The notes under the pieces are model-generated. The model was not told the origin of the DNA, did not search any database, and saw only the letters and a program-made list of their open reading frames with translations. The position numbers and the translations under genes were made by a program. A stretch of DNA of 64,000 nucleotides from an uncultured Roseburia sp. (GTDB lineage: Bacteria > Bacillota > Clostridia > Lachnospirales > Lachnospiraceae): the NCBI GenBank assembly GCA_947567625.1, contig CANONN010000007.1, positions 4,803-68,802 of the forward strand, written 5' to 3'. Positions 19,546 through 61,598 of this stretch are shown one piece after another. The first letter of the stretch is position 1. Every line of letters starts with the position of its first letter.

Positions 19546-19551
19546 GCAATA

Positions 19552-19580: not shown

Positions 19581-19625
19581 TCGTGTAGAGGATTGCACAG
19601 ACCTGTGAAAAGGAGAGAATGAGAG

Positions 19626-20789: not shown

Positions 20790-20867
20790 TGAGCGGACGG
20801 AGGAATAAAAGACCGATCACGGAGGATAGCGCAAAAAGCGAATAAAAACGCAGTCTACAACGCAGAA

Positions 20868-21608: not shown

Positions 21609-21612
21609 TCAT

Positions 21613-22530: not shown

Positions 22531-22571
22531 CAGGTTAAAAATCGTAACCGTTCAATTGTTTACCTGTTACT

Positions 22572-22623
22572 AAAAATCGGATGAAACATATGGTTTGTCA
22601 CCGTATGTTTCATCCGATTTTTT
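22572..22623 (+). terminator. Strong rho-independent (potentially bidirectional) terminator
   Basis: AAAAATCGGATGAAACATA-n13-TATGTTTCATCCGATTTTTT. The 16-bp perfect stem is flanked by A and T tracts. Confidence 0.9.
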
Positions 22624-22653
22624 ACGCTGGAAGAAAAGCATTATCTGCGGTTT

Positions 22654-23640
22654 GTGATGAAACAGAGCCAATGCTTTGAAGCTGTTTTGACTGGAAAAGG
22701 GATGATTCTGGAGAAAGAATGGGAAGAAAGATACCAAGAGGCGGCCGTCGGTGTGGATACCGCCAGATTAAACCGTTATCTCTGCAAACAGGTGCGCAGG
22801 CATTTGGATAAGTTGTCTGCGGAGAAAGCAACCGGTTTTTCCGTCGCCGAACGGGCATACCGTTACGGAGATCACGGTATTTATCTTTCCACAAAAGAAA
22901 AACGGAAAAGAATTTTTATCCTCCTGACGGATAACAATCAATATAAGAGGCAGATTTATATTGATTTAAAGCCCGACGAGCGAAATCTCGTTATACATGT
23001 TCCGGTAGAAACTGCGGTCAGGCGGCATGAGGATTATCACGCCAGGATAGGGCTGGCATCGGGTATGCGGCATATGCTTGTCACGGACAAGGGACATGTC
23101 TATGGCGAACGGTACGGTGAATATCAATTTGCCCTGGCGGAATATGTGCGCAAAGGGCGGTCGGTTTATCAGAAAAACCGACGCAATAATCCCGGACGCA
23201 AAAAGTACTATGCCGGGAAAGCGAGACTGGAGGCGGCGCTGCACAGCTATATCAACGGCGAAATCAATCGGCTGCTGGAAACGGAGATGCCGGAGGAAAT
23301 CTTTTTGCCGAAGCTGCCGCAAAACACCAGGGCGGGCGTTTATAAGGTATATAACAATGCTGCCCATATGTGGCAGAGGGGCTATATCAAAAAGCGGCTT
23401 ACGCAGAAGTGTCAGGAGAATTCGATTCGGCTGGTCGAGGTGTTCGCAAAGAACATCGGCAAAGAATGTAGTGTGTGTGGAGCGACCGGCAAAAAGGAAA
23501 AAGAGTTTTTTGTCTGCCAGGCATGCGGTGCGCAGTTGCCCGAGAGGGAGAATGTCGCAAGAAACGCGTTACTGCGTGGAAGAGCACAGAGAGTATCTGT
23601 GTCTGCAAATGTTACAGACACAGAAATCAAAATCGAATAA
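22654..23640 (+). CDS. TnpB-like (IS200/IS605 OrfB family) protein with substituted RuvC catalytic triad; candidate nuclease-dead derivative
   Basis: The order of blocks matches TnpB. The RuvC-I block is 'RIGLASGMRHMLVTDKG' versus the usual GIDLG. The RuvC-II block is 'EEIFLPKL' versus IVxEDL. The zinc ribbon is 'CSVCG...CQACG'. The RuvC-III block is 'PERENVARNALLRG' versus (D/H)xDxNAAxNI. 328 aa, intact ORF, no tnpA nearby. Confidence 0.7.
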   Translation: MMKQSQCFEAVLTGKGMILEKEWEERYQEAAVGVDTARLNRYLCKQVRRHLDKLSAEKATGFSVAERAYRYGDHGIYLSTKEKRKRIFILLTDNNQYKRQIYIDLKPDERNLVIHVPVETAVRRHEDYHARIGLASGMRHMLVTDKGHVYGERYGEYQFALAEYVRKGRSVYQKNRRNNPGRKKYYAGKARLEAALHSYINGEINRLLETEMPEEIFLPKLPQNTRAGVYKVYNNAAHMWQRGYIKKRLTQKCQENSIRLVEVFAKNIGKECSVCGATGKKEKEFFVCQACGAQLPERENVARNALLRGRAQRVSVSANVTDTEIKIE

Positions 23641-23959
23641 GTTCATTCAGAAAGTTTGTGCAGATGGATGGAAAAGCCGTCAAGTAGATACTCTATCATA
23701 AGGTATTCTGTTCTACCGGGGAAGAACCGGACTGCAAAACGTTTCTTTTGATAAAAAGGCGGGAGTTATTTTTCTGCCAGACGGCATTAGAAGCCGGCCA
23801 TGCCGGGTATTGGGTATGCCAGGACCTGTGGGAACTTGAAACGGAAGTAGTTTATCGTTTGAAGAAGTACCGGGAGCGAAGCGGGTAATAATGTTATTCC
23901 GCAGCATCAACGGAGAGCTTGATGTCCAATATTCCATATTATAAGATTGGAAAACAAAT

Positions 23960-24253
23960 ATGAAACGATACAGAAAGAAAGAGATGCAAGAGACAGTGGA
24001 AACACTGTTGAAAGCAAATGACACAATCGGTACGGCCAGAAAAACGAATTCTGCGGAATATCTGGTGGAGCTGCTTACCCAGTGCCAGGAGTCAGCGATT
24101 CTACTTGGAACGTACCTTGATACGTTAGGGGACAAGTATCATTATCTTGTAGAAGTACTGGAAGATTACTGCGAGGCGGTTTATCAGATCAGTGTCAGCC
24201 TTGCGGATGAGAGCCAATGCAGGAAAATAGTAAAAAAATACAAAAGCAGTTGA
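23960..24253 (+). CDS. Small helical hypothetical protein (97 aa), possibly the N-terminal part of the next gene via a -1 shift
   Basis: ATG 23960. It overlaps ORF 24217..26352 by 37 nt, and an A7 run (24232-24238) lies in the overlap. Confidence 0.5.
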   Translation: MKRYRKKEMQETVETLLKANDTIGTARKTNSAEYLVELLTQCQESAILLGTYLDTLGDKYHYLVEVLEDYCEAVYQISVSLADESQCRKIVKKYKSS

Positions 24254-26352
24254 CAGGACTGATCAATCATATACGTTATGATTTGCCGGGGGACAGAACG
24301 GAGGTCGTATTTCTCCCTTATAAAGCTTCTATGTGGGATTCTCTGGAAAGTGTGTGGAAAGCGGCGGTCTCTGACGAACAGACGGACGCTTATGTCATTC
24401 CGATTCCGTATTACGATAAAAATCCAGATGGGAGTTTTCGGGAAATGCATTATGAGGGGAATTTATATCCCGCGTATGTGCCTGTGACGCATTATGATGA
24501 TTATAATTTTGTGGAAAGAACCCCGGACGTAATTTTTATACATAATCCGTATGATAATACAAATTATGTGACGAGCGTACATCCTTTTTTTTATTCCGAT
24601 CATTTGAAACAGTATACGGATAAGTTAGTGTATATACCTTATTTTATATTGCGGGAGTTAAATCCACAAAACCGGGTAGAAATAGAGAATATCAAACATT
24701 TTATTACGACGCCCGCTGTGATTCATGCCGACAGAGTCATCGTGCAATCGGAGAACATGCGGCAGATCTATATTGGCGTTATGATGGAATACACCGGAAA
24801 TGACACTGCCAGCAGGCGTTATTGGGAAGAAAAGATCTTGGGGCTTGGCTCCCCGAAAGTGGACAAGGTCTTAAATACCGGAAAAGAGGATATCGAGATA
24901 CCAGGGGAATGGCTGACCGTGATACAGAAGCCGGATGGGAGCAGCAAGAAAATTGTTTTATATAATACAAGTATCACGGCTTTACTCGAGCACAATGAGC
25001 TGATGCTGGTAAAAATGCAGGACGTGTTTCGTATCTTTCAAAAAAACAGAGACGAGATTGCACTGCTGTGGCGGCCTCATCCGCTGATTGAGAGTACATT
25101 GCGGTCTATGCGGCCGCAATTGTGGGAGGAGTATCAAAGAATCCGAGACCAGTATCTTGCGGATGGATGGGGAATCTATGACGACTCGGCAGAGCTTGAC
25201 CGGGCGGTAATCTTGAGTGACGCCTATTATGGAGACAAAAGCAGCGTAGTAGAACTATACAGAAAAACGGCAAAGGGAATCGTTATACAAAAAGTGTATC
25301 AATCTAAGATACAGGAAAATTTTATTATGGCTTCCCAGGTGAACGATCATGAGAACAGATATATTTTGTCGAAACAGGGAGTTTTGTACCAGTTTGATGA
25401 AAACACCAGGGGTTTTACGGCGCTAAAGGTATTTTGTGAAGATACAGGCGAAGAGGGAACTTATAAATATATGGAATTATACGGAGAAAAGATCGTACTT
25501 TTTCCGTACAGGACGTCCCGTATTTTATTTTATGATTTGGCAAACGATTTATTGACGGATGCTATCATTGCGGAGCGACAGAGTGTTTATCGCGCGTATT
25601 ACAGATATGAAAATACGGTCTATCTGATTGGGTGTAAGGACAAGCAGACAGCGGATAGGAAAGTTGACTTGCAAACGTTGCAGACGCAGGCTATGCCCCA
25701 ATGGCTGGACCGCATACACGCGCAGCTTGGATTAGAAGCAGACTACAATTTGACCATGATGGGAATCGGGAAACTGCAAATCATAGATTTTAAGGGCTAC
25801 CTTCCGCTTACCGTTCCCGATCATATTGCTGTAATTGATTTTAGGACAGAAGAGATCAAAGTAATCAAAGTTGGAGACCGCGGGATTCGATATAATACGG
25901 TGTGCTATGACGGCAATGCGTTTTGGCTCACCGGGGATAAAACGTGTATTGTGCGTTGGTGCGATAAGAAATCTGCGATCACTACCTTTGAAAATTTTCA
26001 GCCAACATTGCCGGACTCCAAAAGATCAAAGTTTATGGATGCACTTTTTGCCAAGTCAGTATATTGGGACGGGTATGTGTATTTTGCTCCGCTGTTAGCG
26101 CAGGAAATCGTTTGTATTCATACAGAGAGTGGCGCGCTGCGCGTGCTCGATCAGACCGAACCGTTGGGAGCCTGTTTTGAAATCGGTCTGTTTGAGGGGG
26201 CAGTTGTCGCTTTTGAAGAAGTTTGGAACGATAGCTGCTGCGAAAAAGTAATCTGCCATTCTTTTGGCACGGACATAGAATTTAAGAGTTTAAACGAGGA
26301 ATATCAAAAGGTAAGAGCCATGATTGGTGAAAAATGCGCAAGTGCAATATAA
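24217..26352 (+). CDS. TagB/TagF-like (CDP-glycerol glycerophosphotransferase family) protein with a long C-terminal beta-rich domain; tentative
   Basis: 'VVFLPYKASMWDSLESVWKAA...AYVIPIPYYDKNPDG...DVIFIHNPYDNTNYVTSV...LVYIPYF...VIVQSENM' resembles Clostridial proteins annotated in this family. Recognised by eye only. Confidence 0.45.
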   Translation: MQENSKKIQKQLTGLINHIRYDLPGDRTEVVFLPYKASMWDSLESVWKAAVSDEQTDAYVIPIPYYDKNPDGSFREMHYEGNLYPAYVPVTHYDDYNFVERTPDVIFIHNPYDNTNYVTSVHPFFYSDHLKQYTDKLVYIPYFILRELNPQNRVEIENIKHFITTPAVIHADRVIVQSENMRQIYIGVMMEYTGNDTASRRYWEEKILGLGSPKVDKVLNTGKEDIEIPGEWLTVIQKPDGSSKKIVLYNTSITALLEHNELMLVKMQDVFRIFQKNRDEIALLWRPHPLIESTLRSMRPQLWEEYQRIRDQYLADGWGIYDDSAELDRAVILSDAYYGDKSSVVELYRKTAKGIVIQKVYQSKIQENFIMASQVNDHENRYILSKQGVLYQFDENTRGFTALKVFCEDTGEEGTYKYMELYGEKIVLFPYRTSRILFYDLANDLLTDAIIAERQSVYRAYYRYENTVYLIGCKDKQTADRKVDLQTLQTQAMPQWLDRIHAQLGLEADYNLTMMGIGKLQIIDFKGYLPLTVPDHIAVIDFRTEEIKVIKVGDRGIRYNTVCYDGNAFWLTGDKTCIVRWCDKKSAITTFENFQPTLPDSKRSKFMDALFAKSVYWDGYVYFAPLLAQEIVCIHTESGALRVLDQTEPLGACFEIGLFEGAVVAFEEVWNDSCCEKVICHSFGTDIEFKSLNEEYQKVRAMIGEKCASAI

Positions 26353-26373
26353 AGGATGGAGGGAGAAGCCGCT

Positions 26374-26805
26374 ATGATAGAGGAAGTAAGAAAAAAGAGC
26401 AAATTGTTGGCGCTCATTATCAGAAATCACCACGAATGTGAGGGTGTGGATTTTTTGACCCCAAACGAGTATTCACAGCAGGTGGCTTATATGCATCACC
26501 CGCAAGGGAAGGTGATTGATGCGCATGTACATAATCTTGTGCACAGAAATGTGGTTTTGACACAGGAAGTACTGGTGATAAAAAAGGGCAAATTGCGTGT
26601 CGATTTTTATGATGAATATGAAGATTATCTGGAAAGCAGAATAATCGGTGCGGGAGATGTCATTTTACTTGTCTCAGGAGGACATGGGTTTAAGGTATTG
26701 GAAGAGCTGGAAATGATCGAGGTCAAGCAGGGGCCGTATGCCGGGGGAGATGATAAGAAGAGGTTTGCGGGAATATCAGATGAGGAGCTTATATTAAAGG
26801 ACTGA
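26374..26805 (+). CDS. Cupin-fold protein (WbuC / sugar-ketoisomerase-like)
   Basis: ATG 26374 follows GGAGGGAG. 'KVIDAHVHN...EVLVIKKGKLRVDFYD...GDVILLVSGGHGF' is a cupin beta-barrel pattern typical of glycan loci. Confidence 0.5.
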   Translation: MIEEVRKKSKLLALIIRNHHECEGVDFLTPNEYSQQVAYMHHPQGKVIDAHVHNLVHRNVVLTQEVLVIKKGKLRVDFYDEYEDYLESRIIGAGDVILLVSGGHGFKVLEELEMIEVKQGPYAGGDDKKRFAGISDEELILKD

Positions 26806-50006: not shown

Positions 50007-50981
50007 ATGTGTACTGCTGCAACTTATACGACGAAAGACTGCTATTTTGGACGCACCTTGGACTATAATATTTCTTATGGCGACGAGGTTGTGATCACGC
50101 CGCGCAATTATTGTTTCTGTTTTCATCAGGTGGGCATCATGCGCAGCCACTATGCCATGATTGGCATGGCCCATGTGGAGGAGGGCTGTCCGCTTTATTA
50201 TGAAGCGGTAAATGAAAAAGGGCTGGGCATGGCCGGCTTAAATTTTGAGGGGAACGCACATTACGGCAAGGTTGAGGAGGGAAAGTATAATGTGGCGCCC
50301 TATGAATTTATTCCCTGGATTTTGGGACAATGCGACACGGTAAAGGACGCGCGTTATCTGCTGGAAAAATTGAATCTTGTGGATATCCCGTTCTGTGACA
50401 GGCTGCCGCAGGCCCAGCTCCACTGGATCATTGCCGACTGTAAGGAAGCGATTACGGTGGAAGAGACCGAGAGCGGCGTTCATATTTACGATAATCCGGT
50501 CGGTGTGCTGACCAATAATCCCAATTTCGGCGAGCAGATGTTTCAATTGAACAATTATATGTATCTGTCGACCGGGGAACCGCAGAATAATTTTTGCAGT
50601 AAACTTCCGTTAAAGCCGTACAGTCACGGGATGGGGGCGATGGGGCTTCCGGGGGACTGGTCTTCCCAGTCGCGTTTTGTAAAGGCGGCGTTTGCCAAGC
50701 TAAATTCGGTTTCCGGCGATTCTGAGACCGAGAGCGTCAACCAGTTTTTCCATATTCTCGGCACGGTGGAACAGCTGCGGGGCTGCTGTAGTATGGGGGA
50801 CGGGAAATTTGATATTACTTTTTATACTTCCTGCTGTAATGTAAGCAAGGGTATCTATTACTATACCACCTACGAGAATCATCAGATTACCGCCGTGCAT
50901 ATGCACAATGTCAATCTCGGCGGCTGCTCGCTGGTTTGTTATCCGCCTGTGAGAAAAGAGCAGATTTGGCTGCAAAATTAA
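50007..50981 (+). CDS. Choloylglycine hydrolase family (bile salt hydrolase / linear amide C-N hydrolase, Ntn)
   Basis: 'MCTAATYTTKDCYFGRTLDY' with the nucleophile Cys2. 'GMAGLNF', 'VLTNNPNF' and 'SRFV' motifs. Confidence 0.85.
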   Translation: MCTAATYTTKDCYFGRTLDYNISYGDEVVITPRNYCFCFHQVGIMRSHYAMIGMAHVEEGCPLYYEAVNEKGLGMAGLNFEGNAHYGKVEEGKYNVAPYEFIPWILGQCDTVKDARYLLEKLNLVDIPFCDRLPQAQLHWIIADCKEAITVEETESGVHIYDNPVGVLTNNPNFGEQMFQLNNYMYLSTGEPQNNFCSKLPLKPYSHGMGAMGLPGDWSSQSRFVKAAFAKLNSVSGDSETESVNQFFHILGTVEQLRGCCSMGDGKFDITFYTSCCNVSKGIYYYTTYENHQITAVHMHNVNLGGCSLVCYPPVRKEQIWLQN

Positions 50982-51023: not shown

Positions 51024-52061
51024 GTGAATGAGATAGGTATGGTTAGTTGCATGGACTTTTATCAATATGATTGGGAAATCGTTCCTGATAAGGGGGCAAG
51101 GCTTTTGCGCGTGAGAGGGCAGCACCCGTCTCCGGTGCTGCCGGAGCAGATAGAGGGAGTCCCGTTGCGAGAGCTGGGAGATTACTGCTTTGCGCCGCAG
51201 GGGCGGCTGCCAGAGCGCTACCGCACGACGGAGGCGGGCAGGGATACGGGCGGTTTGGCCCGGCCTGCCGTGGATTCGGCAGAGACAAGTCTGCGGGAGC
51301 TTGGCGGCAGTTATCTGGAGCGTCTGGTATTGCCGGATTCCCTGCGGCGCATTGGAACATATGCATTTTATAATTGCAAGCGGCTGACGTCGCTTGCGGT
51401 CGGCAAGCGGCTGACAGACATCGGCAGTGACGCTTTTATGAATTGCCATCGGCTGAAAGAGATTTATCTGAGAGCGGCGCCAAAGGAAAAGACGGGAGTG
51501 CGTTTCATGTTAGCGCAGATTTCGCAGGATTTGGAAGTGTTTTTTGAGGCGGAGGGAACCCTTCTGGCGGCGCTCTTTTTCCCGGAGTATCATGAGACTT
51601 ATGATGAGATCGCGCCGGCGCATCTCTTTGGGCGTCATATCGTGGGGGAGGGATTTCGCGCCAGACAGTGTTTTGAAGACGGCGTGGCAGATTTTAGACA
51701 GTACGATAGGATTTTCCCCAAGGCGTGTGCCGGGGAGGAAGAAGGGACGCTCTGTGCGATCGCGTGGGACAGGCTGCGCTGTCCGATCGAATTGGAAGAG
51801 CAGCCCGGGAGGAGGTATGCGGATTATTTGCGGGCGCATAGCGCAGCATTGCAGGAGAGGTTTTTGCGGGAGCGCGACAGCGGCCAGCTCGTGCTGTTAG
51901 GTGATATGGGATTTCTCTCGAAAGAAGAGGTCTGGCATTGTATCCGGCGGGCATCCGCCGCAGGCTGGGCAAAGGGAGCGGCCGAGCTGATGCGTATGAA
52001 AAACCGCCGGTTTCCGGAACAAAAGGCTGCGGCGCGCTACACATTTGACGACGAGATCTGA
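51024..52061 (+). CDS. Cytoplasmic BspA-type leucine-rich-repeat protein
   Basis: 'LPDSLRRIGTYAFYNCKRLTSLAVGKRLTDIGSDAFMNCHRLKEIYL' is LRR_5-type. No signal peptide. The start is uncertain (GTG 51024, ATG 51039 or ATG 51051). Confidence 0.65.
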   Translation: MNEIGMVSCMDFYQYDWEIVPDKGARLLRVRGQHPSPVLPEQIEGVPLRELGDYCFAPQGRLPERYRTTEAGRDTGGLARPAVDSAETSLRELGGSYLERLVLPDSLRRIGTYAFYNCKRLTSLAVGKRLTDIGSDAFMNCHRLKEIYLRAAPKEKTGVRFMLAQISQDLEVFFEAEGTLLAALFFPEYHETYDEIAPAHLFGRHIVGEGFRARQCFEDGVADFRQYDRIFPKACAGEEEGTLCAIAWDRLRCPIELEEQPGRRYADYLRAHSAALQERFLRERDSGQLVLLGDMGFLSKEEVWHCIRRASAAGWAKGAAELMRMKNRRFPEQKAAARYTFDDEI

Positions 52062-52137
52062 GTGACACAAAATCCCAAAGAAATGACAGGATGGATGCTG
52101 ACACGACGGGGAAACATGTGAGGAGTTTGGAACGAAT

Positions 52138-53478
52138 ATGGCACATACGAAAACGCAGGATGAGTGGGAAAACGAGATGGCGGAAAAAATACTTTCCCAT
52201 ATCCGAACGGAACTTTATCTGGAACTTCGTTTTTTGCAACTGGCCTTCGCGGCGCTGCCAGTACGCGCGGATGCCGCCATCCGAACCTTTGCCACGGACG
52301 GAGGAGTGCTTTGTTTCTCATCGGAGCAGGTCTTACGCTTATTTGAAAAGAATCCGCTTTTTTTAAACCGCGCTTATCTGCACAGCGTGCTGCACTGCCT
52401 GTTCTCGCATCTGTGGATTGCGCCGCCCGAAGTGGCGGGATGCGAAATCAGAGAGGACGGGGCGAACCTTTCCGATTGGCAGCTCTGGCATGTGGCGTGT
52501 GATATCATGGTGGAACATGCGATCGACGGCATGGATAAGAGCTGTACCAGACGTGTGTTGAGCTGGAGCAGGCAGAAGATGTATGAGACGATGGGGCGGC
52601 GAAAAGAGCCGCATTCCGCGCTCACAATCTATCAAAGCCTGAAAAAAATGACTGCGGGGGAGACAGCGGCTTTACAGAAAGAATTTTATACGGATGATCA
52701 CCGCTATTGGCCCAAGCGAGATGAGCGCACAGCGAATATGCAGCAGGCAGCCTTAAACCGTCAAAAATGGGACAGGTTATTAAGGCAGATGAGTCTGGAA
52801 CAGGAGCGGCGGGGAGAGACGCCGGATGAGGGGGAAGCGCTCTGTTATGCACAGCTGAAGGCCGCGAGGGCAAGGCGAAGCTATCGCGATTTTCTGCGGG
52901 AGTTTGCGAGACGCCGGGAGGAACTGCACGCAGATGAGGACGAGTTTGATCTGGCCTCTTACACATACGGCCTGCGTCTGTATGGGAATCTGCCTCTGAT
53001 TGAGCCGTTAGAGACCAGAGAGGTCAAAAAGATCAGGGAATTTTTGATCGCGATTGATACCAGTTATTCCACAAGCGGGGAGCTGATTAAGAAATTTTTG
53101 CGGGAAACGGCGCAGATTTTGCGGGAGAGCGACAGCTATTTTGCAGATGCCGTGATTCGAATTTTACAGTGTGACGATGCGGTGCGCAGCGATACCACGC
53201 TGGTAGGGCGACGGGAGTTGGAACAGTTTTTGGACAGATTCGAGGTGGCGGGCGGCGGCGGAACCGATTTTCGGCCGGTGTTTGTCTATGTCGATCAGCT
53301 GTTGGCGGCAGGAGAGTTAAAAAATCTGGGCGGCCTGATCTATTTTACGGACGGGCTGGGGACTTACCCCGCCAGACGGCCCGCTTATAAGACCGCGTTC
53401 TTATTTTTGAAGGAGTACGACGAGACAAAAGTGCCGCCGTGGGCCATAAGACGGCGCATAGAGCCGGAGGAGTTTTAA
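52138..53478 (+). CDS. DUF2201-type protein: metallopeptidase-like N-domain + VWA-like C-domain
   Basis: 'YLHSVLHCLFSHLW' occupies the HExxH-like position but reads HSxxH. 'FLIAIDTSYSTSGE' (MIDAS-like DxSxS) and 'GGGGTDFRPVF'. Confidence 0.65.
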   Translation: MAHTKTQDEWENEMAEKILSHIRTELYLELRFLQLAFAALPVRADAAIRTFATDGGVLCFSSEQVLRLFEKNPLFLNRAYLHSVLHCLFSHLWIAPPEVAGCEIREDGANLSDWQLWHVACDIMVEHAIDGMDKSCTRRVLSWSRQKMYETMGRRKEPHSALTIYQSLKKMTAGETAALQKEFYTDDHRYWPKRDERTANMQQAALNRQKWDRLLRQMSLEQERRGETPDEGEALCYAQLKAARARRSYRDFLREFARRREELHADEDEFDLASYTYGLRLYGNLPLIEPLETREVKKIREFLIAIDTSYSTSGELIKKFLRETAQILRESDSYFADAVIRILQCDDAVRSDTTLVGRRELEQFLDRFEVAGGGGTDFRPVFVYVDQLLAAGELKNLGGLIYFTDGLGTYPARRPAYKTAFLFLKEYDETKVPPWAIRRRIEPEEF

Positions 53479-53494
53479 GAGGCGAAGTGAGAGG

Positions 53495-55006
53495 ATGAGA
53501 CTTATGAATATCAGAGAGGCAAAGGAAGAGATCATAAATACGGTGCGCGCCTATCTCAGCAAGGATGAAACGGGGGCATACCGGATTCCTTCGGTCAGGC
53601 AGCGCCCCGTTTTGTTGATGGGTCCTCCGGGTATCGGCAAGACACAGATCATGGAGCAGGCAGCCAGGGAGCTTCGCATCGGCCTGGTGGCGTACACGAT
53701 CACCCACCATACGAGGCAGAGCGCCGTGGGCCTTCCATTTATCCGGGAAGAGACATTTGAGGGAGCCGTCTATTCCGTGACGGAGTACACCATGAGTGAG
53801 ATCATCGCCAGCGTGTACCGAAAAATACGCGACAACGGACAGCGGGAGGGGATTTTGTTTATCGACGAGATCAACTGTGTCTCGGAGACTTTGGCTCCTA
53901 CGATGTTGCAATTTTTACAGTGCAAGACGTTTGGCAATCAAAAGATACCGGATGGCTGGGTGATTGTAGCGGCGGGCAACCCGCCGGAGTATAATCAATC
54001 TGTGCGCGAGTTCGATATGGTGACTTTGGACCGCGTGCGCTATCTCACCGTCGAGGCAGATCTTGGTGTCTGGAGGGAGTATGCTGCCCGCCAGCAGATA
54101 CACGGCGCGATTTTAAGCTATCTGGAGCTTCGCCCGGCACATTTTTATCAGGTCAAGACGGATGTGGACGGGATGCAGTTTGTGACGGCGCGCGGCTGGG
54201 AGGATTTGAGCAGCCTGATGAGGGTTTACGAGGAGCTGGATATTGCGGTGGATGAAAGCGTGGTGCGGGAGTTTTTGCACCACGAGGAGATTGCAGCGGA
54301 TGCGGCGGCGTATTTTGCATTATACCGCAAATATCAGGAGGCTTATGGCATCGCAGATATATTGGCGGGAAATGTCAGACAGACGGTGTATGCGAGGTTG
54401 GATGCGGCCGCTTTTGACGAGCGCGTCAGTGTGGTGAATTTGCTGCTTGACGCGCTGTATCTATGTTTTCGTGAGGCGGCGGACCAGAAGCTGCTCACGG
54501 ACGGTTGGTATGCGTTTTTAAAGGAGCTTCGTTTGGCCCTTAGGGGTCAGGATAACCCAGGCGATTGTTACCAGAATTTGCTGCGGCAGAAGACGGCGGA
54601 GGTTGCGCAGATGAAAAAAGCCGGATGCTTAAGCCGCCGCGAGGAAAAAAGAGCGCGTCTTTTCTGTGATATTCTGGCAAAAGAAGCGCCGGCGTATGTG
54701 CCGGGGGATGACGAGAATGTCTATTTTGCCGGATGCAGGGAAAAGTTTGCGGTGCAGACGGCCCGTTTGGAGCGTTTGGAGCATGAGTTGGAGGAACAAC
54801 TACAGCACGCCTTCGATTTCGTCGAGACGGCGTTTTTAAACGGGCAGGAGCTTGTGATGTTTGTGACCGGGCTGACGCTCTTTGAGGACGCGGCGCTGTT
54901 TTTGTCCGAGCACTCCAACGAGCGCTACCAAAGCTACAGCGATCAGTTGCTGCTGGGGACAAAACGGGCGGAGCTCTTGCAGGAGCTAAGGCGCGACGAA
55001 TCATAA
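53495..55006 (+). CDS. MoxR-like AAA+ ATPase (AAA_5)
   Basis: Walker A 'LLMGPPGIGKTQ', Walker B 'ILFIDEINC' and 'VIVAAGNPPEYN'. Alternative start ATG 53504. Confidence 0.8.
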   Translation: MRLMNIREAKEEIINTVRAYLSKDETGAYRIPSVRQRPVLLMGPPGIGKTQIMEQAARELRIGLVAYTITHHTRQSAVGLPFIREETFEGAVYSVTEYTMSEIIASVYRKIRDNGQREGILFIDEINCVSETLAPTMLQFLQCKTFGNQKIPDGWVIVAAGNPPEYNQSVREFDMVTLDRVRYLTVEADLGVWREYAARQQIHGAILSYLELRPAHFYQVKTDVDGMQFVTARGWEDLSSLMRVYEELDIAVDESVVREFLHHEEIAADAAAYFALYRKYQEAYGIADILAGNVRQTVYARLDAAAFDERVSVVNLLLDALYLCFREAADQKLLTDGWYAFLKELRLALRGQDNPGDCYQNLLRQKTAEVAQMKKAGCLSRREEKRARLFCDILAKEAPAYVPGDDENVYFAGCREKFAVQTARLERLEHELEEQLQHAFDFVETAFLNGQELVMFVTGLTLFEDAALFLSEHSNERYQSYSDQLLLGTKRAELLQELRRDES

Positions 55007-55057
55007 AAATCCCCATTTCTGCGCGCAGAAGAAAGGGAACTTAAATTTGGAGGTGGA

Positions 55058-56782
55058 ATGATTATTATGTTATCAGCAACGGAATTGCAGAGCTTGCTTA
55101 GAAGAATTGACCGCAAGGGTTATCCGGCCTACAAGGATACCAGGGGAAGCTATGATTTTCGGGGTTTTGTGCTCTCAATCGACCATGTGCAGGGAGACCC
55201 CTTTGCCTCCCCGTCGAAGGTCAGTGTACATATCAAGGGAGCAAAGGCAGGGTTCCCAGCAGAATACTATGCAAAAAGGCATGTAAGGATTGCCCTGCAG
55301 GATTTGCTCCTGCGCCATTTTGCGAGGGAGATCGAAAAAGTTTCCCACAAGGCGGGCGGTTCCGGCAAAAGCGGCCTGATGGCGGTCAGCCGCCCCGGAC
55401 AGGAGGTCTTAGAGCGCAGCGCCTGCCAGATTACGCCGGATAACGGCAATCTTACCGTGCGCTTTGAGGTGGGCTTCCCGGCGAACGGGCGGACCATAAA
55501 CGCCAGGGAGCTGGAAAAAATATTGTTCGATTTTTTGCCCAAATGCGTCGCGTCCAGTCTCTTTTATAAGGCGCTGGATGAAAAAGAGGTGCAGCGGTGC
55601 GTGCGGCTGGCAGAGGACCAGCAGTATATCAGAGATCAGCTTGCGGCCAGGGGTCTTACGGCCTTTGTGGCCAACGGCGCCATCCTGCCCAGGGAATCGG
55701 GCGTCTCCGGCCGGCCGATGAAAGGGGCGGTGGCGTTTGCATCGCCCGCTTCTATGGAGGTGGAGCTTGCGCTCCCGCATCACGGGCCGCTTAAGGGCAT
55801 GGGAATCAAAAAGGGCGTGACGCTGATTGTGGGCGGCGGCTACCACGGAAAATCAACGTTGCTCAAAGCGCTGGAGACAGGCGTTTACAATCACATTGCA
55901 GGGGACGGCAGGGAGTATGTGATCACGGACGGGACCGCCGTCAAGCTTCGCGCCGAGGATGGCAGAAGCATCAAGAAAACGGATATCTCCATGTTCATTA
56001 ACCACCTGCCGAATAAAAAAGATACCGTGCATTTTTATACGGAGGATGCCAGCGGCAGCACGTCCCAGGCGGCAGCCGTGGTGGAGGCCATGGAAGCGGG
56101 GGCAAAGGCTTTTTTGATTGACGAGGACACTTCGGCGACGAATTTTATGATTCGCGACGAGCTGATGCAGCGCGTGGTAAACCGCGAGAGTGAACCGATC
56201 ACGCCGTTTACGCACCGGATTCGGCAATTGTATCAGGAGGATGGAATCTCTACCATTTTGGTGGCGGGCAGCTGCGGCTCCTATTTTGAGAAAGCCGACT
56301 GTGTGCTGCAAATGAAGCAGTACACGCCGTACGAGATCACGGAGTTTGCCAAAGCGGAAGCGCGGGCATTTGCCGGTGAGCAGGGCGGCTCTTCTATGGA
56401 AGAGGCTTTGGCGGCGGCCAAACCGGATGTGAAGCGCGTGATTAAGCCGGACAGAAGTTTTGCGGATGCCAGATTCAAGATCAAAACGGGCGGCCTCGAT
56501 ACGATTACGCTGGGGAGGGAGCCGCTTGACGTGCGTTATCTCGAGCAGCTTTGCGATACGGAGCAGTTAAATTATCTGGGCTCGCTCATCAAATATATGC
56601 AGTGCCATATCTTTGACGGCAAAAAAACGCTGCAGCAGGCGGTGGAAGCGGTGGAGCGTCTGATTGCGGAGAAAGGAATCGGCGCAGTCTGCGAGGGCAG
56701 CTATCTGCCCTGCCATCTGGCCGAGGTGAGGGCGCAGGAGCTTTTTGCGGCGATCAACCGTTATAGAAAACTGGCGTTATAG
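55058..56782 (+). CDS. ABC-class ATPase of unknown function (COG3044 / ABC_ATPase family)
   Basis: 'YPAYKDTRGSYDFRGFVLSIDHVQGDPFASPSKVSV' N-terminal hallmark. Walker A 'GGGYHGKSTLLKAL' and 'FLIDEDTSATNF'. Confidence 0.75.
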   Translation: MIIMLSATELQSLLRRIDRKGYPAYKDTRGSYDFRGFVLSIDHVQGDPFASPSKVSVHIKGAKAGFPAEYYAKRHVRIALQDLLLRHFAREIEKVSHKAGGSGKSGLMAVSRPGQEVLERSACQITPDNGNLTVRFEVGFPANGRTINARELEKILFDFLPKCVASSLFYKALDEKEVQRCVRLAEDQQYIRDQLAARGLTAFVANGAILPRESGVSGRPMKGAVAFASPASMEVELALPHHGPLKGMGIKKGVTLIVGGGYHGKSTLLKALETGVYNHIAGDGREYVITDGTAVKLRAEDGRSIKKTDISMFINHLPNKKDTVHFYTEDASGSTSQAAAVVEAMEAGAKAFLIDEDTSATNFMIRDELMQRVVNRESEPITPFTHRIRQLYQEDGISTILVAGSCGSYFEKADCVLQMKQYTPYEITEFAKAEARAFAGEQGGSSMEEALAAAKPDVKRVIKPDRSFADARFKIKTGGLDTITLGREPLDVRYLEQLCDTEQLNYLGSLIKYMQCHIFDGKKTLQQAVEAVERLIAEKGIGAVCEGSYLPCHLAEVRAQELFAAINRYRKLAL

Positions 56783-56828
56783 ATAGAAAAATCAATGTGA
56801 TAATTAATGACAGAGAGAGGCATCTTCC

Positions 56829-59570
56829 ATGGGCAATACATCAGAAATGAAAACGCAAAAACAGATCAATGTGGCCGTGCTCGCCCATGTCGATGCGGGG
56901 AAAACCACGCTCTCGGAGGCAATGCTGTATTTGACCGGCAGTATCAGAAAGGCGGGTCGGGTCGACAACCGGGATGCATTTTTTGACACCAATCATCTGG
57001 AGCGCGACCGGGGAATCACCATTTTCTCCAAGCAGGCCGAGCTGACGGTTGAGGATATGCGCGTGACTTTGCTTGATACGCCGGGACATGTGGATTTTTC
57101 GGCTGAGATGGAGCGCGTACTCACGGTGCTCGACTATGCGATACTCGTGGTGAGCGGTGCAAACGGCGTGCAGGGACACACGAGGACGCTTTGGAACCTG
57201 TTAAAGAAATATCGGATTCCCGTGTTTTTGTTTGTCAATAAGATGGATCAGCCCGGTGCGGACAAAGAAGAGCTTTTGGCAGAAATCCGGCAGAAGTTGT
57301 CCGCCGACTGCATGGATTTTACGGAGGATACGACGGAGGCGTTTTATGAAAATGCTGCCACCTGTGAGGAGGCGGTGCTAGAGCAGTACCTGGAAAACGG
57401 TTGGATAGCGGAGGAGGAGATCGCCAGATTAGTCGGCGAGCGCAAGCTGTTTCCCTGCTATTTTGGCTCCGCGTTAAAGATGGAAGGCGTGCAGGAGTTT
57501 TTGACGGGATTTTACCGCTATACCTTGCAAAAGGAATACCCATCTGACTTTGGGGCGAGAGTGTTTAAAATTGCACGGGACGAGCAGGGCAAGCGGCTCA
57601 CCTATCTGAAAGTGACCGGGGGCGCCCTGAAGGTGCGGCAGGTTTTATCCGGCGCAAAGAAGGGCGAAAACGGCCAGACAGAGGGCGGCTGGGAGGAAAA
57701 GGTAAACCAGATACGCATTTATTCCGGCGAGAAGTATGTCACGGCGGAACAGATGTGTGCGGGGGGAATCTGCGCGGTGACCGGATTAAGCGAGACATAT
57801 CCGGGCCAGGGGCTGGGAGGGGAAGCCGATGAAGAGACGCCGGTCTTAGAGCCCGTACTCACATATTGTATCGGCCTGCCGGAGGGGATGGACGCGGCGC
57901 GCGCCCTGCCGCTGTTAAGACAGCTGCAGGAGGAGGAACCGGAGCTTTCCATTGTCTGGAAGGAAGAGCTGCAGGAGCTTTCCGTCAGGCTTATGGGCGA
58001 CGTGCAGATGGAAATTCTAAAAAGCCTGATATGGGAGCGGTTTGGTTTTGAAGTGACGTTCGGGAACGGCAGTATCGTGTACAAAGAGACGATCGCCGAC
58101 CGCGTGGAGGGGGTCGGCCATTTTGAGCCGCTGCGCCACTATGCGGAGGTACACCTTTTGCTGGAACCGGCGGACCCGGGCAGCGGGATGCAGTTTGCCG
58201 CGGATTGCAGCGAGGATGTGCTGGATCGGAACTGGCAGCGGCTGATTTTGACGCATCTGGAGGAAAAGCAGCATGTGGGCGTGTTGACCGGGTCGGCGCT
58301 TGCGGATGTCAAGATTACATTAAAGTCCGGCCGGGCGCATCCGAAGCACACGGAGGGCGGCGATTTCAGAAAAGCCACTTACCGGGCGGTGCGCCAGGGG
58401 CTGATGCAGGCGGAGTCGGTGCTCTTGGAGCCATATTTTCATTTTGTCCTGGAAGTACCGGAGGATGCGGTGGGCAGGGCCATGACCGACGTGGAGCGCA
58501 TGCACGGCAAAGTGTACTATGATGCGGCGCAGGGGACAAAAGAGCTTCGGGTCCTGACTGGCCGGGCGCCGGTATCAGAAATACAGGATTATCAGAAAGA
58601 GGTCATCGCCTATACCAGGGGGCATGGAAGCCTGACCTTTGCACCGGGAGGCTATGAGCCGTGCCACAATGCAAAAGAGGTGATCGAGGCGATCGGCTAT
58701 GAGGCCGAGCGGGATGTCAGAAATACGGCGGATTCCGTATTCTGTGCACACGGGGCGGGTTTCATCGTGCCCTGGAATGAGGTTGCAGAACATATGCATC
58801 TCGAGAGTATTTTGACGGAACGTCTGCCAAACGAGGAGGCGTGGGAGCTGGCAAGAGCCTACAAAGAAGCCGCTTTCAGACAGAGAGCGCGCAAGGCAGG
58901 CGGGGAGGAAGCGTGGATTGGCACGGACGAGATCGACAAAATATTGGCGCAGACCTACGACGCCAACCGCCGTGGCCGCCAGGGAGCGGCTAAAAACCAT
59001 TATAAGTTAAAGAGAACAGGCGCGGGGCAGGCGGCCGTGACCAGAACGTATAAACCGCAGGCAAAATTGGAGGAATACCTGTTGGTGGACGGGTATAATG
59101 TGATATTTGCCTGGGAGGAGCTTGGCGCGCTGGCGGCGGAAAATATCGACGGGGCGCGGGGCAGGCTGTTGGATATTTTATGTAATTATCAGGGGATGCA
59201 GGGGTGTCAGGTGATCGCGGTGTTTGACGCTTACCGGGTGAAAGGGCATAAGACAGAAATTTTTGATTATCACAATATCCATGTGGTTTACACCAGGGAG
59301 GCGGAGACCGCAGATGCCTACATTGAAAAATTTGCCCATGAAAACAGCAATAAGTATCATATTACGGTTGCCACCTCAGACGGCCTGGAACAGATCATCA
59401 TTCGCGGGGCGGGCTGTGATCTGCTCTCTGCGAGGGAGCTGAAACAGAGAATCGAGCAGGGAGAGAAGTCACTCAAGGAGCAGTACCACGCTGTTTCAAA
59501 GACAGGCAGAAATTTCATGATGGACGGCATCGATTTAAGCAAACTGGAACTGGGGAAAGAAGAGGGATAA
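56829..59570 (+). CDS. TetM/TetO/EF-G-family translational GTPase fused to a C-terminal Rae1/YacP-type NYN ribonuclease domain
   Basis: G motifs 'AHVDAGKTT', 'DTPGH' and 'NKMD', with TetM-like domains II-V to about aa 650. After a ~95-aa basic linker come 'YLLVDGYNVIFAW', 'VIAVFDAY' and 'ITVATSDGLEQII' (from nt ~59076), the YacP NYN signature. Confidence 0.8.
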   Translation: MGNTSEMKTQKQINVAVLAHVDAGKTTLSEAMLYLTGSIRKAGRVDNRDAFFDTNHLERDRGITIFSKQAELTVEDMRVTLLDTPGHVDFSAEMERVLTVLDYAILVVSGANGVQGHTRTLWNLLKKYRIPVFLFVNKMDQPGADKEELLAEIRQKLSADCMDFTEDTTEAFYENAATCEEAVLEQYLENGWIAEEEIARLVGERKLFPCYFGSALKMEGVQEFLTGFYRYTLQKEYPSDFGARVFKIARDEQGKRLTYLKVTGGALKVRQVLSGAKKGENGQTEGGWEEKVNQIRIYSGEKYVTAEQMCAGGICAVTGLSETYPGQGLGGEADEETPVLEPVLTYCIGLPEGMDAARALPLLRQLQEEEPELSIVWKEELQELSVRLMGDVQMEILKSLIWERFGFEVTFGNGSIVYKETIADRVEGVGHFEPLRHYAEVHLLLEPADPGSGMQFAADCSEDVLDRNWQRLILTHLEEKQHVGVLTGSALADVKITLKSGRAHPKHTEGGDFRKATYRAVRQGLMQAESVLLEPYFHFVLEVPEDAVGRAMTDVERMHGKVYYDAAQGTKELRVLTGRAPVSEIQDYQKEVIAYTRGHGSLTFAPGGYEPCHNAKEVIEAIGYEAERDVRNTADSVFCAHGAGFIVPWNEVAEHMHLESILTERLPNEEAWELARAYKEAAFRQRARKAGGEEAWIGTDEIDKILAQTYDANRRGRQGAAKNHYKLKRTGAGQAAVTRTYKPQAKLEEYLLVDGYNVIFAWEELGALAAENIDGARGRLLDILCNYQGMQGCQVIAVFDAYRVKGHKTEIFDYHNIHVVYTREAETADAYIEKFAHENSNKYHITVATSDGLEQIIIRGAGCDLLSARELKQRIEQGEKSLKEQYHAVSKTGRNFMMDGIDLSKLELGKEEG

Positions 59571-59572
59571 TC

Positions 59573-61000
59573 ATGTTGCCACAGCAATTTTTAGAGCGCA
59601 TGCAAAAGTTTTTTGGCGAGGAGTATCATGCGTTTCTGGCGAGCTATGAGAGACCACGGGTTCATGCGCTGCGGCTGAATCCGCAAAAAACACAGACGGC
59701 GCATTTTTTGGAAAAGCCATTCTTTCATTTAGAGCCGGTGCCCTGGGCACGCGACGGATTTTTTTACGCGCCGGGGGAGGAGCCCGGGAAACACCCGTAC
59801 CATGCGGCAGGCGTTTATTATATCCAGGAGCCGAGCGCCATGGCGCCGGCGGAATACCTGTTTGGGGACGGGGAGGCCGATACCGCGCCTACGGAGCAGG
59901 AGCGCGTACTTGATCTGTGCGCGGCCCCAGGGGGGAAAAGTACGCAGATTGCGGCCAGGATGGCAGGAAAGGGTATTTTGCTTTGCAATGAGATACACCC
60001 GGCCAGGGCGAAGATTCTGTCCGAAAATATGGAGCGGCTCGGCGTCGCCAACGCTATGGTGACAAATGAGCCTCCCGAAAGGCTGGCGGAGATATTTGAC
60101 GGGTATTTTACCGGAATCCTGGTTGACGCGCCCTGCTCTGGGGAGGGAATGTTCAAAAAGAACGAGGAGGCAAAAGAAGAGTGGAGCATGGAGAATATCG
60201 CTCTCTGCGCCGACAGACAGGACGGCATTCTGGACTGCGCCGCATCAATGCTTTCGGCGGGCGGGAAGCTGGTCTATTCTACCTGTACGTTTGCCCCGGA
60301 GGAAAACGAGGGGACGATCACACGCTTTTTGCACCGCCACCCGGAGTTTGTAGTTGAAAAAGTGAAAAGGTATCCGGGTATGGAGGGCGGCAGGCCGGAG
60401 TGGTATGAGGGCGCCCTGCCAACGGTGAGGGATACGGTGCGCCTGTTTCCGCATCACATCGACGGAGAAGGTCATTTTCTTGCCGTCTTAAGAAAAGCGG
60501 GACAGAGGGGGGCATCGGAGGCTGGTTTCTTCCGCCGCTTCGGGCTCGAGCAGGGAATGTCGCAGAAGGATAGGCGGCAGCCGGGAGGGGGTGTTTTAGA
60601 ATGGGAAGCGTTTGCGCGTGAAACGCTGCAAAAATCGTTTGGCGGAAATTATCTCAGATTTGGGGATCAGCTCTATCTGGCGCCGGAAGGGATGCCGTCC
60701 ATCCGTCAGCTTAAAGTGCTGCGCCCGGGACTACATCTAGGCACTATAAAAAAGAACCGGCTGGAACCTTCCCACGCGCTGGCTCTCTATCTGCATCCCG
60801 GGCAGGTGAAACACTGTGTGGATTTGCCGGCGGACGGCGAAGAGATCAGGGCGTATTTAAGCGGGCAGGCGCTAAAGCGCGAAGGAGAAAAGGGCTGGTA
60901 TCTGGTGACGGTGGACGGATACAGTATCGGCTGGGCGAAACAGGCGGGGGGCGTCCTAAAAAATCATTATCCCAAAGGACTCAGGATTCATTATGTGTGA
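59573..61000 (+). CDS. rsmF: 16S rRNA m5C methyltransferase, RsmF/YebU-like (NOL1/NOP2/Sun family)
   Basis: 'VLDLCAAPGGKSTQIA' and 'ILVDAPCSGEGMF'; catalytic Cys in 'VYSTCTFAPEENE'; C-terminal PUA-like region. It starts 3 nt after the GTPase-NYN stop. Confidence 0.8.
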   Translation: MLPQQFLERMQKFFGEEYHAFLASYERPRVHALRLNPQKTQTAHFLEKPFFHLEPVPWARDGFFYAPGEEPGKHPYHAAGVYYIQEPSAMAPAEYLFGDGEADTAPTEQERVLDLCAAPGGKSTQIAARMAGKGILLCNEIHPARAKILSENMERLGVANAMVTNEPPERLAEIFDGYFTGILVDAPCSGEGMFKKNEEAKEEWSMENIALCADRQDGILDCAASMLSAGGKLVYSTCTFAPEENEGTITRFLHRHPEFVVEKVKRYPGMEGGRPEWYEGALPTVRDTVRLFPHHIDGEGHFLAVLRKAGQRGASEAGFFRRFGLEQGMSQKDRRQPGGGVLEWEAFARETLQKSFGGNYLRFGDQLYLAPEGMPSIRQLKVLRPGLHLGTIKKNRLEPSHALALYLHPGQVKHCVDLPADGEEIRAYLSGQALKREGEKGWYLVTVDGYSIGWAKQAGGVLKNHYPKGLRIHYV

Positions 61001-61598
61001 GAAGAATCAACTATTTGGCAGGCTTTCATTGTGGGAATGTCTGACCGACGCTTTTTTGCGCGGCGTAATCGAGAAATACCATTATGAAGAGAGAGACGCT
61101 GTTTTGCTTGGCCGGGTGGCTTCCGATATAAAAATCTGTATCAAAGATCAGGAAAGCTTTTGCGTGAGCTATGATGAAAGAAAGTGGCCGTTGGAGCGGG
61201 AGGCGCTTGTGACGCTGACGCTTGGCCCCGGTATTGATCTTTTGCAGGAGCGCTATCACAGCGGGGGACTTTTGATGGAAAGCTATATGCTGGAGAATTG
61301 CAGCAGTGAGCTCTTGCGTTTGGGGTATGAAAAGATACATCGTCTGATCGTGGAACAGACCGGTATGTATGCCGCGCGGGTGAGCTTCTTTGGCGGGGAG
61401 GAGGAGTATTCCCTCAACCGGATGGCGGAGGAGCTTAAAAAGCGGGATATTAAAAATATAGCCTGCACAGCCGATTATTGTCTGAGGCCGACGAAAAGTG
61501 CGGCCTATCTCGTGAAACTTTGCCCGGAGGAGACGGTTGTGAGAAGTATATGCAGCGACTGTGCCAACCGGGACAACTGTCATCAATGCGCAAGGTGA
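60993..61598 (+). CDS. Hypothetical; possibly methionine-synthase activation-domain-like protein
   Basis: Overlaps rsmF by 8 nt. 'TLTLGPGIDLLQERY...LMESYMLENCSSELL' loosely resembles stand-alone MetH activation-domain proteins of Clostridia. Cys-rich tail 'CSDCANRDNCHQC'. Weak call. Confidence 0.3.
   Translation: MCEKNQLFGRLSLWECLTDAFLRGVIEKYHYEERDAVLLGRVASDIKICIKDQESFCVSYDERKWPLEREALVTLTLGPGIDLLQERYHSGGLLMESYMLENCSSELLRLGYEKIHRLIVEQTGMYAARVSFFGGEEEYSLNRMAEELKKRDIKNIACTADYCLRPTKSAAYLVKLCPEETVVRSICSDCANRDNCHQCAR

Follow-up and report, generated by a model that had tools for sequence, protein, structure and literature searches.

Which function might a translational GTPase resembling the tetracycline ribosomal-protection proteins have when an endoribonuclease is attached to its C-terminus? 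This question is raised by a gene at nt 56829..59570 (+) of a 64,000-nt stretch of DNA from an uncultured Roseburia sp. (contig CANONN010000007.1), the whole of which is called the window here. The gene is a single ATG-initiated frame of 913 amino acids (aa), with no internal stops and no frameshifts, in which an EF-G/Tet-type GTPase is followed by a Cys/His module, a linker and an NYN_YacP domain of the Rae1 type. We propose, at a probability of roughly one half, that its product is a chromosomal housekeeping mRNA nuclease of the Rae1 type, which would be directed by its GTPase to stalled ribosomes and would feed ribosome rescue.

The architecture itself has been described. A TetM-like GTPase with a C-terminal YacP-like NYN domain was reported from Clostridia as 'Tet-NYN_YacP' (Atkinson 2015, PMC4342817; Matelska 2017, PMC5499597), for ten species or 'some Clostridia', with the function left open or resistance suggested. 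The window fusion is of the same family, and since the architecture is in the literature and identical proteins are in public databases, the fusion as a discovery is already known. A full-text literature search found no functional study of it. The first reading of the window, which was made from the sequence only and had considered the fusion functionally undescribed, thus stands as far as function is concerned, but not for the architecture. In contrast to the earlier papers, relatives are reported here from at least 578 species genomes, the determinants of tetracycline resistance are found to be absent, and the Cys/His module and linker motif are added. New in the present study are the scale of the family, the negative outcome of the Tet comparisons, the two sequence elements just named, the lower weight given to the neighbouring rsmF gene, and the correction of the A-site argument. 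The value of the family therefore lies in the question of its function rather than in its discovery, and this question is timely since the Rae1 papers of 2025-2026 have recast Rae1 as a Gram-positive collision nuclease that feeds trans-translation. A Rae1-GTPase fusion conserved across a dominant family of human gut bacteria offers a handle on how Rae1 recognizes stalled ribosomes.

Architecture of the fusion

That GTPase and nuclease are encoded by one gene is confirmed by the uninterrupted frame, and by the finding of the fusion in one open reading frame (ORF) in 74 of the 75 evaluable related GTDB loci. The identical 913-aa protein is also present in public databases on independent contigs of up to 145 kb, with the same neighbours. 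In view of these identical proteins and the one-frame loci, the fusion is not an accident of assembly. The motifs on which the sequence-only reading was based (AHVDAGKTT, DTPGH, NKMD, LLVDGYN, VFDAY and VATSDGLEQ) were all found in the ORF, and the Pfam search identified all five EF-G domains as well as NYN_YacP (Table 1). The scores for PF22042 and PF14492 are each slightly under their own Pfam gathering score, and the corresponding domains II and III are confidently folded in the AlphaFold2 (AF2) model. This full-length model has a mean predicted local distance difference test score (pLDDT) of 78 and a predicted template modelling score (pTM) of 0.54, and its inter-domain arrangement is unreliable. 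All figures for invariance and conservation given below are from a family alignment of 89 members, with 61-91% identity to the window protein.

The nuclease domain

The C-terminal domain matches PF05991 with 167.2 bits, compared to a gathering score of 24.6, and covers positions 1-154 of the 166 in the model. It lies where the sequence-only reading had placed it, at about nt 59076-59530 (Pfam boundaries in Table 1). Crystal structures of Rae1/YacP of Bacillus subtilis (5MQ8 and 5MQ9) are matched with E=4e-24 and about 45% identity. NYN_YacP domains are defined by a GYN motif after the first Asp and by at least four active-site Asp residues (Matelska 2017, PMC5499597). In the fusion D754-G-Y-N757, D800, D829, D851 and E854-Q855 are present, and the four Asp residues, Y756 and N757 are invariant, so on proper alignment the catalytic residues are intact, as had been supposed, and by its sequence the domain falls within this definition. 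In addition, two C-terminal helices are predicted by AF2 (aa 852-860 and 868-892), with R859 and R869 conserved in at least 90% of the sequences.

Identity to the stand-alone Rae1 proteins of B. subtilis, Listeria and C. difficile is 40-46%, which matches the range of 37-42% found between Rae1 of C. difficile and Rae1 of Bacilli. This suggests that the NYN domain is the Rae1 nuclease proper and not a diverged paralogue, i.e. that it is Rae1-like at the ortholog level. The canonical setting of Rae1, a single domain of about 170 aa encoded in a cysS-mrnC-rlmB-yacP-sigH operon, is not found here: the domain is C-terminal in a larger protein, in an unrelated neighbourhood. The operon context of stand-alone yacP is seen in C. 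difficile and Listeria. The fusion thus resembles Rae1 of B. subtilis in nuclease fold family, D-GYN motif and four catalytic Asp residues, and presumably also in its chemistry and in ribosome-dependent mRNA cleavage, but it carries a built-in GTPase module and a conserved linker motif where B. subtilis has a free protein of about 170 aa.

Work on free Rae1 bears directly on how such a domain might act; translation-dependent cutting of mRNA at stalled ribosomes is known for Rae1 of B. subtilis only. Rae1 was found to cut mRNA 12 nt upstream of the codon in the A site, at the rear of stalled ribosomes; these are stalled at stop codons or polyproline, and collided ribosomes are possibly required (PMC12407103). 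A preprint of September 2026 adds that Rae1 is needed for the rise in tagging by transfer-messenger RNA (tmRNA) after ribosome collisions, and that it makes tmRNA substrates on collided ribosomes (PMC13622287). The fusion is not mentioned in either of the two papers.

The GTPase body

The G1 (AHVDAGKTT), switch I (RGITI), G3 (DTPGH, with His87) and G4 (NKMD) motifs are all present. D83-T-P-G-H87, N137, K138, D140 and T64 are invariant, and the P-loop is conserved in at least 90% of the sequences. With its G1-G4 motifs and a five-domain EF-G-like fold the protein is a member of the EF-G/EF2 superfamily, and these features suggest that its GTPase body has all that is needed for binding to the ribosomal factor site and for GTP hydrolysis. 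A Foldseek search with the AF2 model retrieved EF-G structures (E~1e-50, target-normalised TM-score up to 0.76), and EF-G also aligns with the GTPase part at the sequence level. It is not EF-G proper, as judged from scores of 327.6 against a cut-off of 583 for NF009381 and of 278.7 against 659 for TIGR00484. The overall fold and the intact GTPase motifs are shared with EF-G and EF-G2-type paralogues, but the fusion stays under all NCBIfam cut-offs for EF-G and its domain IV tip is different. We know of no EF-G with a nuclease.

Domain IV has the highest mean column conservation in the family alignment (0.88), followed by the NYN domain (0.87). The tip loop of domain IV carries the signature GRAHxKHTEGGDF, in which G501, A503, H504, K506, H507 and T508 are invariant, and which is also found in the distant members from A. 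rectalis and Monoglobus. In the HMMER alignment this loop (residues 501-514) corresponds to the stretch 504-517 of TetM that includes loop 3 (GLYYSPVSTPADFR).

The similarity to TetM and TetO invites the reading that the gene encodes a tetracycline ribosomal-protection protein with an accessory RNase, and hence a novel resistance mechanism. The best matches in PDB are ribosome-bound TetO and TetM (E~2e-70, over aa 11-612), the best NCBIfam match is tet_protect, members are named 'TetM/TetW/TetO/TetS family tetracycline resistance ribosomal protection protein' by PGAP/RefSeq, and RNase-assisted resistance was raised by Atkinson 2015 (PMC4342817). The fusion also shares with TetM and TetO (NF012153, NF033148; PDB 3J9Y, 4V6V) a five-domain EF-G-like GTPase without the long G' insertion of EF-G. 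Nevertheless, we regard this reading as very unlikely. Scores are only 422.3 bits against a cut-off of 775 for tet_protect (NF012153) and 283.3 against 1100 for the TetM/W/O/S model (NF033148). Moreover, Ser508, Pro509 and Val510 at the tip of loop 3 in domain IV of TetM overlap and clash with the drug (PMC7456112), and these align to P505-K506-H507 of the fusion, with K506 and H507 invariant; the complete TetM tip Tyr506-Tyr507-Ser508-Pro509-Val510 is replaced by A503-H504-P505-K506-H507. The short C-terminal helix that ends TetM (about 639 aa), and whose role Arenz and colleagues are said to have described in 2015, has no counterpart either: the alignment stops at aa 603-612, and the Cys/His module, the linker and the nuclease follow instead. 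Unlike tet genes, which are found on mobile elements, the fusion gene is chromosomal and widespread, and at the loci examined it lies in a housekeeping setting off mobile elements.

True tet genes of Roseburia are accessory and transposon-linked (PMC11913394). The tet-gene-free R. intestinalis M50/1 was inhibited above 0.019 ug/ml tetracycline (PMC11913394), which is indirect evidence, with fusion carriage unconfirmed. Equally indirect, with carriage by the strains unconfirmed, is the observation that tetracyclines inhibit nearly all gut commensals tested, including E. rectale and R. intestinalis (bioRxiv 10.1101/2020.01.09.893560). The fusion is probably not a tetracycline-resistance gene. 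Because RefSeq and PGAP put Tet labels on a family that fails the sequence criteria for ribosomal protection, tetracycline resistance in gut metagenomes may be overestimated by resistome surveys that go by product name or by loose homology.

The Cys/His module and the linker

The region between GTPase and nuclease, initially seen as a plain linker of about 95 aa, proved to consist of a Cys/His module, variable linker parts and a conserved motif within the linker. The conserved module and the linker motif are newly described here. For aa 598-750 no match was found in a PDB-sequence profile search, nor in a Pfam scan at E up to 10, and modelling of this region alone by AF2 was poor (pLDDT 64). 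In the full-length model the Cys/His module forms a helix and a beta-hairpin with a pLDDT of about 80, and it occupies the place of the short C-terminal helix of TetM. C612, C639, H641, W649 and H657 are invariant, and H613 is conserved in at least 90% of the sequences; our guess would be that the module binds a metal ion, with C612/H613/C639/H641 as a candidate zinc site.

The linker that follows varies from 77 to 111 aa across the family (median 90). Its residues 665-744 have a pLDDT below 50, column conservation in the variable parts is 0.24-0.39, and its C-terminal half is basic, with a median net charge of +6 over aa 713-750. Embedded in it is a block with a conservation of 0.75, in which E701, I705 and N713 are invariant and D703 is conserved in at least 90% of the sequences. 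A helix is predicted by AF2 inside this motif (aa 699-712).

Distribution and chromosomal location

When the linker and NYN region was used to query GTDB, with each species represented by one genome, confirmed relatives were found in at least 578 species genomes; the best 80 of these are nearly all of Lachnospiraceae type. Carriers include Roseburia spp. (R. hominis, R. inulinivorans DSM 16841), Hungatella effluvii, Eubacterium sp. 14-2, [Clostridium] polysaccharolyticum and Acetivibrio ethanolgignens, and the fusion is also present in A. rectalis and in Monoglobus pectinilyticus, which is of another order. At least 120 clusters at 90% identity have the same architecture, and in a library of representatives at 50% identity 373 proteins match at E<=1e-30, many of them of 860-1070 aa.

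The fusion gene is chromosomal and non-mobile. When the linker and NYN region was compared by tblastn to plasmids and phages, only chromosome-like or bacterial records were matched, and no plasmid, phage or defence context could be identified at any locus examined. Two PLSDB records, NZ_CP143948.1 (A. rectalis, 252 kb; locus L093) and NZ_OY725736.1 (Monoglobus, 518 kb; L094), were rejected as evidence of plasmid carriage; they look like chromosome pieces or chromids, because map, secA and ssb are aboard. For one of them RefSeq gives the fusion as a TetM/W/O/S resistance protein, and for the other as a 'translation factor GTPase family protein', an inconsistency that could swell resistome counts. 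Similarly, MT835514.1 (positions 8106-26792; L095), labelled 'UNVERIFIED: Bacteriophage sp.' and derived from human faeces, is a bacterial chromosome fragment with genes for FeoB, ZIP, RsmH, the fusion, GltX, a small alarmone synthetase and GlpK. A second record with the 'Bacteriophage sp.' label, MT835563.1, also carries the fusion; gene content was examined for MT835514 only.

These two faecal contigs are one reason to consider a toxin or anti-phage effector that would shut down translation by GTPase-guided RNA cleavage, a possibility already raised by the sequence-only reading. NYN and PIN nucleases are common effectors in toxin and defence systems. We nevertheless consider such a role highly improbable. 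Other than a trivial P-loop match, PADLOC gave nothing for the fusion and the genes around it, no antitoxin or immunity partner is conserved among the 82 related loci, and the gene occurs in hundreds of species in varied chromosomal settings that are of the housekeeping type at every locus examined, while the 'phage' contig that was examined is bacterial (FeoB, RsmH, GltX, GlpK).

Several apparent exceptions to the fused architecture were followed up. Stand-alone NYN proteins closely related to the NYN domain of the fusion are almost certainly no real genes, as the gene calls trace to artefacts. P0271 (184 aa, on 102 contigs) was rejected as an NYN-only protein, since a scaffold gap of 100 N lies in the linker and a full GTPase is encoded upstream; such gaps, at L085:5731-5830 and L086:5675-5774, consist of 100 N within the linker-coding region with duplicated sequence flanking each. 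P0362 was called in an assembly full of errors, with many split genes, and P0420 is due to a frameshift within an A-rich stretch of the linker. The best 120 relatives of P0181 (177 aa) are of 132-304 aa and all lack GTPase domains; they are probably mostly fragments of fusions, because they lie mostly on contigs of a few kb and four out of the five named by NCBI are labelled 'partial'.

Two loci are noted here. In a Ruminococcus sp. metagenome-assembled genome (MAG), at L091:2860-5549 and in L092, a frameshift within an A-rich run of the linker splits the gene into parts for a GTPase of 702 aa and an NYN protein of 182 aa. Both assemblies have the identical junction, which could reflect an error in homopolymer sequencing, a real split or a site of frameshifting. 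In a Lachnospiraceae MAG from goat rectum (L077:1422-2465) a 347-aa ORF encodes the linker and the NYN domain, preceded only by the tail of the Cys/His module, with no GTPase homology in the 1.4 kb upstream. It is the only GTPase-less candidate among the 75 evaluable loci, and a misassembly at the start of the contig may be its origin.

Proposed function

From the architecture and distribution of the family, its intact active sites, its strongly conserved domain IV and NYN domain, and its divergence from Tet determinants, we propose the following sequence of events for a nuclease directed by its GTPase to stalled ribosomes. The GTPase body would bind the factor-binding site of the ribosome, and the tip of domain IV with its GRAHxKHTEGGDF loop would insert towards the decoding centre and so sense a stalled or untranslocatable ribosome. 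Binding would raise the local concentration of the NYN domain on the stalled ribosome, and this domain would cut the mRNA at a position other than the A site; the entry side, or the stretch between two collided ribosomes, is the most plausible location. The truncated mRNA could then be resolved by trans-translation or other rescue systems, and GTP hydrolysis would release the factor. A cut between collided ribosomes is proposed because free Rae1 cuts in the inter-ribosome segment, and with its flexible tether of about 90 residues the nuclease could get to the side where the mRNA enters, or to the mRNA that lies between collided ribosomes.

A different geometry had been the basis of the sequence-only reading, in which the GTPase places the NYN domain at the decoding centre for a GTPase-controlled cut of the mRNA in the A site, comparable to RelE or Cue2. 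Domain IV of TetM and EF-G and the C-terminus of TetM do reach the decoding centre (PMC7456112 and established structural knowledge), the C-terminal extension of the fusion begins exactly at the position expected for the C-terminal helix of TetM, and docking of the Rae1 crystal structure into the A site was at one time possible (as PMC12407103 recounts). However, the A-site model was derived from this docking and was dropped for free Rae1 by its own authors in 2025, in favour of the upstream cut described above (PMC12407103), so the mechanistic argument built on it is weakened. Furthermore, a domain IV that occupies the A site leaves no room there for an extra NYN domain of about 150 aa, and the flexible linker of 77-111 aa suggests that the nuclease acts away from the GTPase body. 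Cleavage in the A site is consequently held to be improbable. On the whole, the sequence-only reading was partly supported by the present analysis.

Several points weigh against the proposal of a stalled-ribosome nuclease. Ribosome binding, GTPase activity and RNA cleavage are expected from homology, and this also applies to the ribosomal state recognized, the mRNA substrate, the cleavage site and the coupling to tmRNA that we infer. The data fit replacement of a stand-alone Rae1 and specialised paralogy alike, and do not distinguish between them. Ribosomes are bound by TetM-type factors in the post-translocation state, when the A site is empty, and by EF-G in the rotated pre-translocation state; the fusion might prefer either, so the cleavage geometry is speculative. 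The inter-domain arrangement in the AF2 model would be an unreliable guide here (pTM 0.54). Finally, a minority association with 16S rRNA methyltransferases (RsmF in 18 of 82 loci, RsmH in L074 and L095) could point to an rRNA-directed role.

More tentatively, Rae1 may have been captured by an EF-G/Tet-like GTPase in Lachnospiraceae and relatives to form a no-go-decay machine in a single polypeptide. In this more specific version the domain IV tip and the Cys/His module would together read the stalled state and license the cut by the NYN domain, and GTP hydrolysis would reset the machine. By function only, this resembles SmrB of E. coli and Cue2/NONU-1 with Hbs1-Dom34 of eukaryotes, systems in which stalled or collided ribosomes have their mRNA cut by a nuclease, and the stalled ribosome is sensed by a translational GTPase. 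No homology to these is claimed: the SMR and NYN folds are unrelated, and in those systems sensor GTPase and nuclease are separate proteins.

If this more specific version is true, the family would represent a new class of GTPase-coupled mRNA surveillance factor and the first translational GTPase with a built-in nuclease, and it would provide an answer to how Rae1-type nucleases are targeted. Hundreds of 'tetracycline resistance' annotations in gut bacteria would then be wrong.

Genomic context

In the window an RsmF-type methyltransferase gene starts 2 nt after the stop codon of the fusion (TAA-TC-ATG), with no terminator-like site between them. Four Pfam RsmF domains in its product score above gathering, and the NCBIfam equivalogs score 400.9 against 690 and 235.8 against 588; since these equivalog scores are under the cut-off, the target nucleotide of this enzyme, m5C1407 of 16S rRNA for RsmF, is only inferred. 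The sequence-only reading had taken this neighbour as reinforcement of an A-site theme. The close spacing is real, but the theme is not sustained by the neighbour survey, a clustering of all flanking ORFs at 82 related loci. An RsmF homologue is found at most 6 kb downstream in 18 out of the 82 loci, mostly with one to three genes in between, and these 18 loci are phylogenetically close, being from Roseburia-type genomes. Direct adjacency was seen in three of the 18, L001, L055 and L061 (gaps of 15-64 nt), and also in the window and in same-species contigs. RsmF is nevertheless the commonest neighbour across the 82 loci, and no neighbour is conserved family-wide. Because it is a minority and lineage-specific association, the link to rsmF cannot bear the weight first given to it.

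RsmH also occurs as a neighbour. In L095, which is from another lineage, the fusion gene overlaps the gene for RsmH/MraW and is followed by gltX, with which the canonical yacP operon of B. subtilis begins, and the RsmH arrangement recurs in L074. The association with 16S rRNA methyltransferases is thus weak, recurrent and confined to a minority, and does not constitute a family-wide operon. It is the main reason to consider that the NYN domain cuts rRNA or pre-rRNA, for maturation, quality control or inactivation and turnover, with the GTPase as a sensor of assembly or as a checkpoint. A role of NYN_YacP in rRNA or tRNA processing was in fact the first prediction, made from the cysS-mrnC-rlmB-yacP-sigH operon (PMC5499597), and the invariant basic tip of domain IV (K506, H507) could contact rRNA. 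Since all experiments on Rae1 show translation-dependent cleavage of mRNA and not rRNA processing, and methyltransferase adjacency is found in a phylogenetically clustered minority, we consider this alternative unlikely.

Neighbourhoods are otherwise lineage-variable and of housekeeping type (map, secA, ssb, gltX, thrS). Other recurrent neighbours are unrelated: MCP, CarD, Fe-hydrogenase, PMT_2, histidine kinase, His_Phos, GGDEF and ROK.

Features of the window

The coordinates of the fusion gene, its parts and the adjacent features are collected in Table 1.

Table 1. Fusion gene, encoded domains and adjacent features in the window
Feature	Coordinates (nt)	Strand	Basis or remark
Putative ribosome-binding site, purine-rich, AGAGAGAGG	56812..56820	+	read from sequence; ends 8 nt 5' of ATG
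Fusion ORF: EF-G/Tet-type GTPase + Cys/His module + linker + NYN_YacP (Rae1)	56829..59570	+	
G domain, aa 11-231, GTP_EFTU PF00009, E=3.8e-53	56859..57521	+	Pfam
Domains II + III: EF-G_D2 PF22042, aa 241-323; EFG_III PF14492, aa 341-412	57549..58064	+	Pfam
Domain IV, aa 415-528, EFG_IV PF03764, E=2.4e-17	58071..58412	+	Pfam
Domain IV tip loop, G501-R-A-H-P-K-H-T-E-G-G-D-F-R514	58329..58370	+	HMMER alignment to TetO/TetM
Domain V, aa 531-616, EFG_C PF00679, E=2e-17	58419..58676	+	Pfam
Cys/His module, aa 612-660, PCHN...SVFCAHGAGFxVxW...YMHLES	58662..58808	+	alignment and AF2
Linker, aa 661-750	58809..59078	+	pLDDT, conservation
Linker helix motif, aa 694-716, E-E-x-W-I-G-T-E-E-I-D-R-I-L-x-x-T-Y-N-A-N-K-R	58908..58976	+	alignment and AF2
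NYN_YacP (Rae1-type) endoribonuclease domain, aa 751-902, PF05991, E=4e-49	59079..59534	+	Pfam
RsmF-type 16S rRNA m5C methyltransferase gene	59573..61000	+	four Pfam RsmF domains

The window is ordinary chromosome, with haem/corrin genes, a low-GC polysaccharide locus, htpG and a bile-salt hydrolase gene. An Rfam scan of the window found nothing, including no tmRNA. Downstream of the fusion, a 201-aa ORF (60993-61598) shares 8 nt with the end of rsmF. Its product belongs to no Pfam family and is rich in Cys at the C-terminus (CSDCANRDNCHQC), and the ORF is conserved in the same-species contig L088. Upstream, a cluster of four genes (51024-56782) is separated from the fusion by a gap of 46 nt and encodes an LRR_5 protein, a DUF2201 (VWA-like) protein, a MoxR-like AAA ATPase and a PF09818 'ABC_ATPase' with MRB1590_C. 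At least the AAA ATPase and the ABC_ATPase, the last two genes, keep their positions in 11 of the 82 loci, and the cluster of all four was seen in L004 and L088.

Further upstream, a block at 24000-45600 has a GC content of 40-46%, compared to 50-57% in its flanks. It contains genes for GT4 glycosyltransferases, a DegT aminotransferase, an NKWYS capsular protein and an FkbM methyltransferase, and is probably a horizontally exchanged surface-glycan locus. A TnpB-like ORF (22654-23640; Cas12f1-like TNB domain, E=3e-7) lies at the edge of this island. Finally, a choloylglycine (bile-salt) hydrolase gene (50007-50981; CBAH, E=2e-94) is consistent with an origin from gut Lachnospiraceae.

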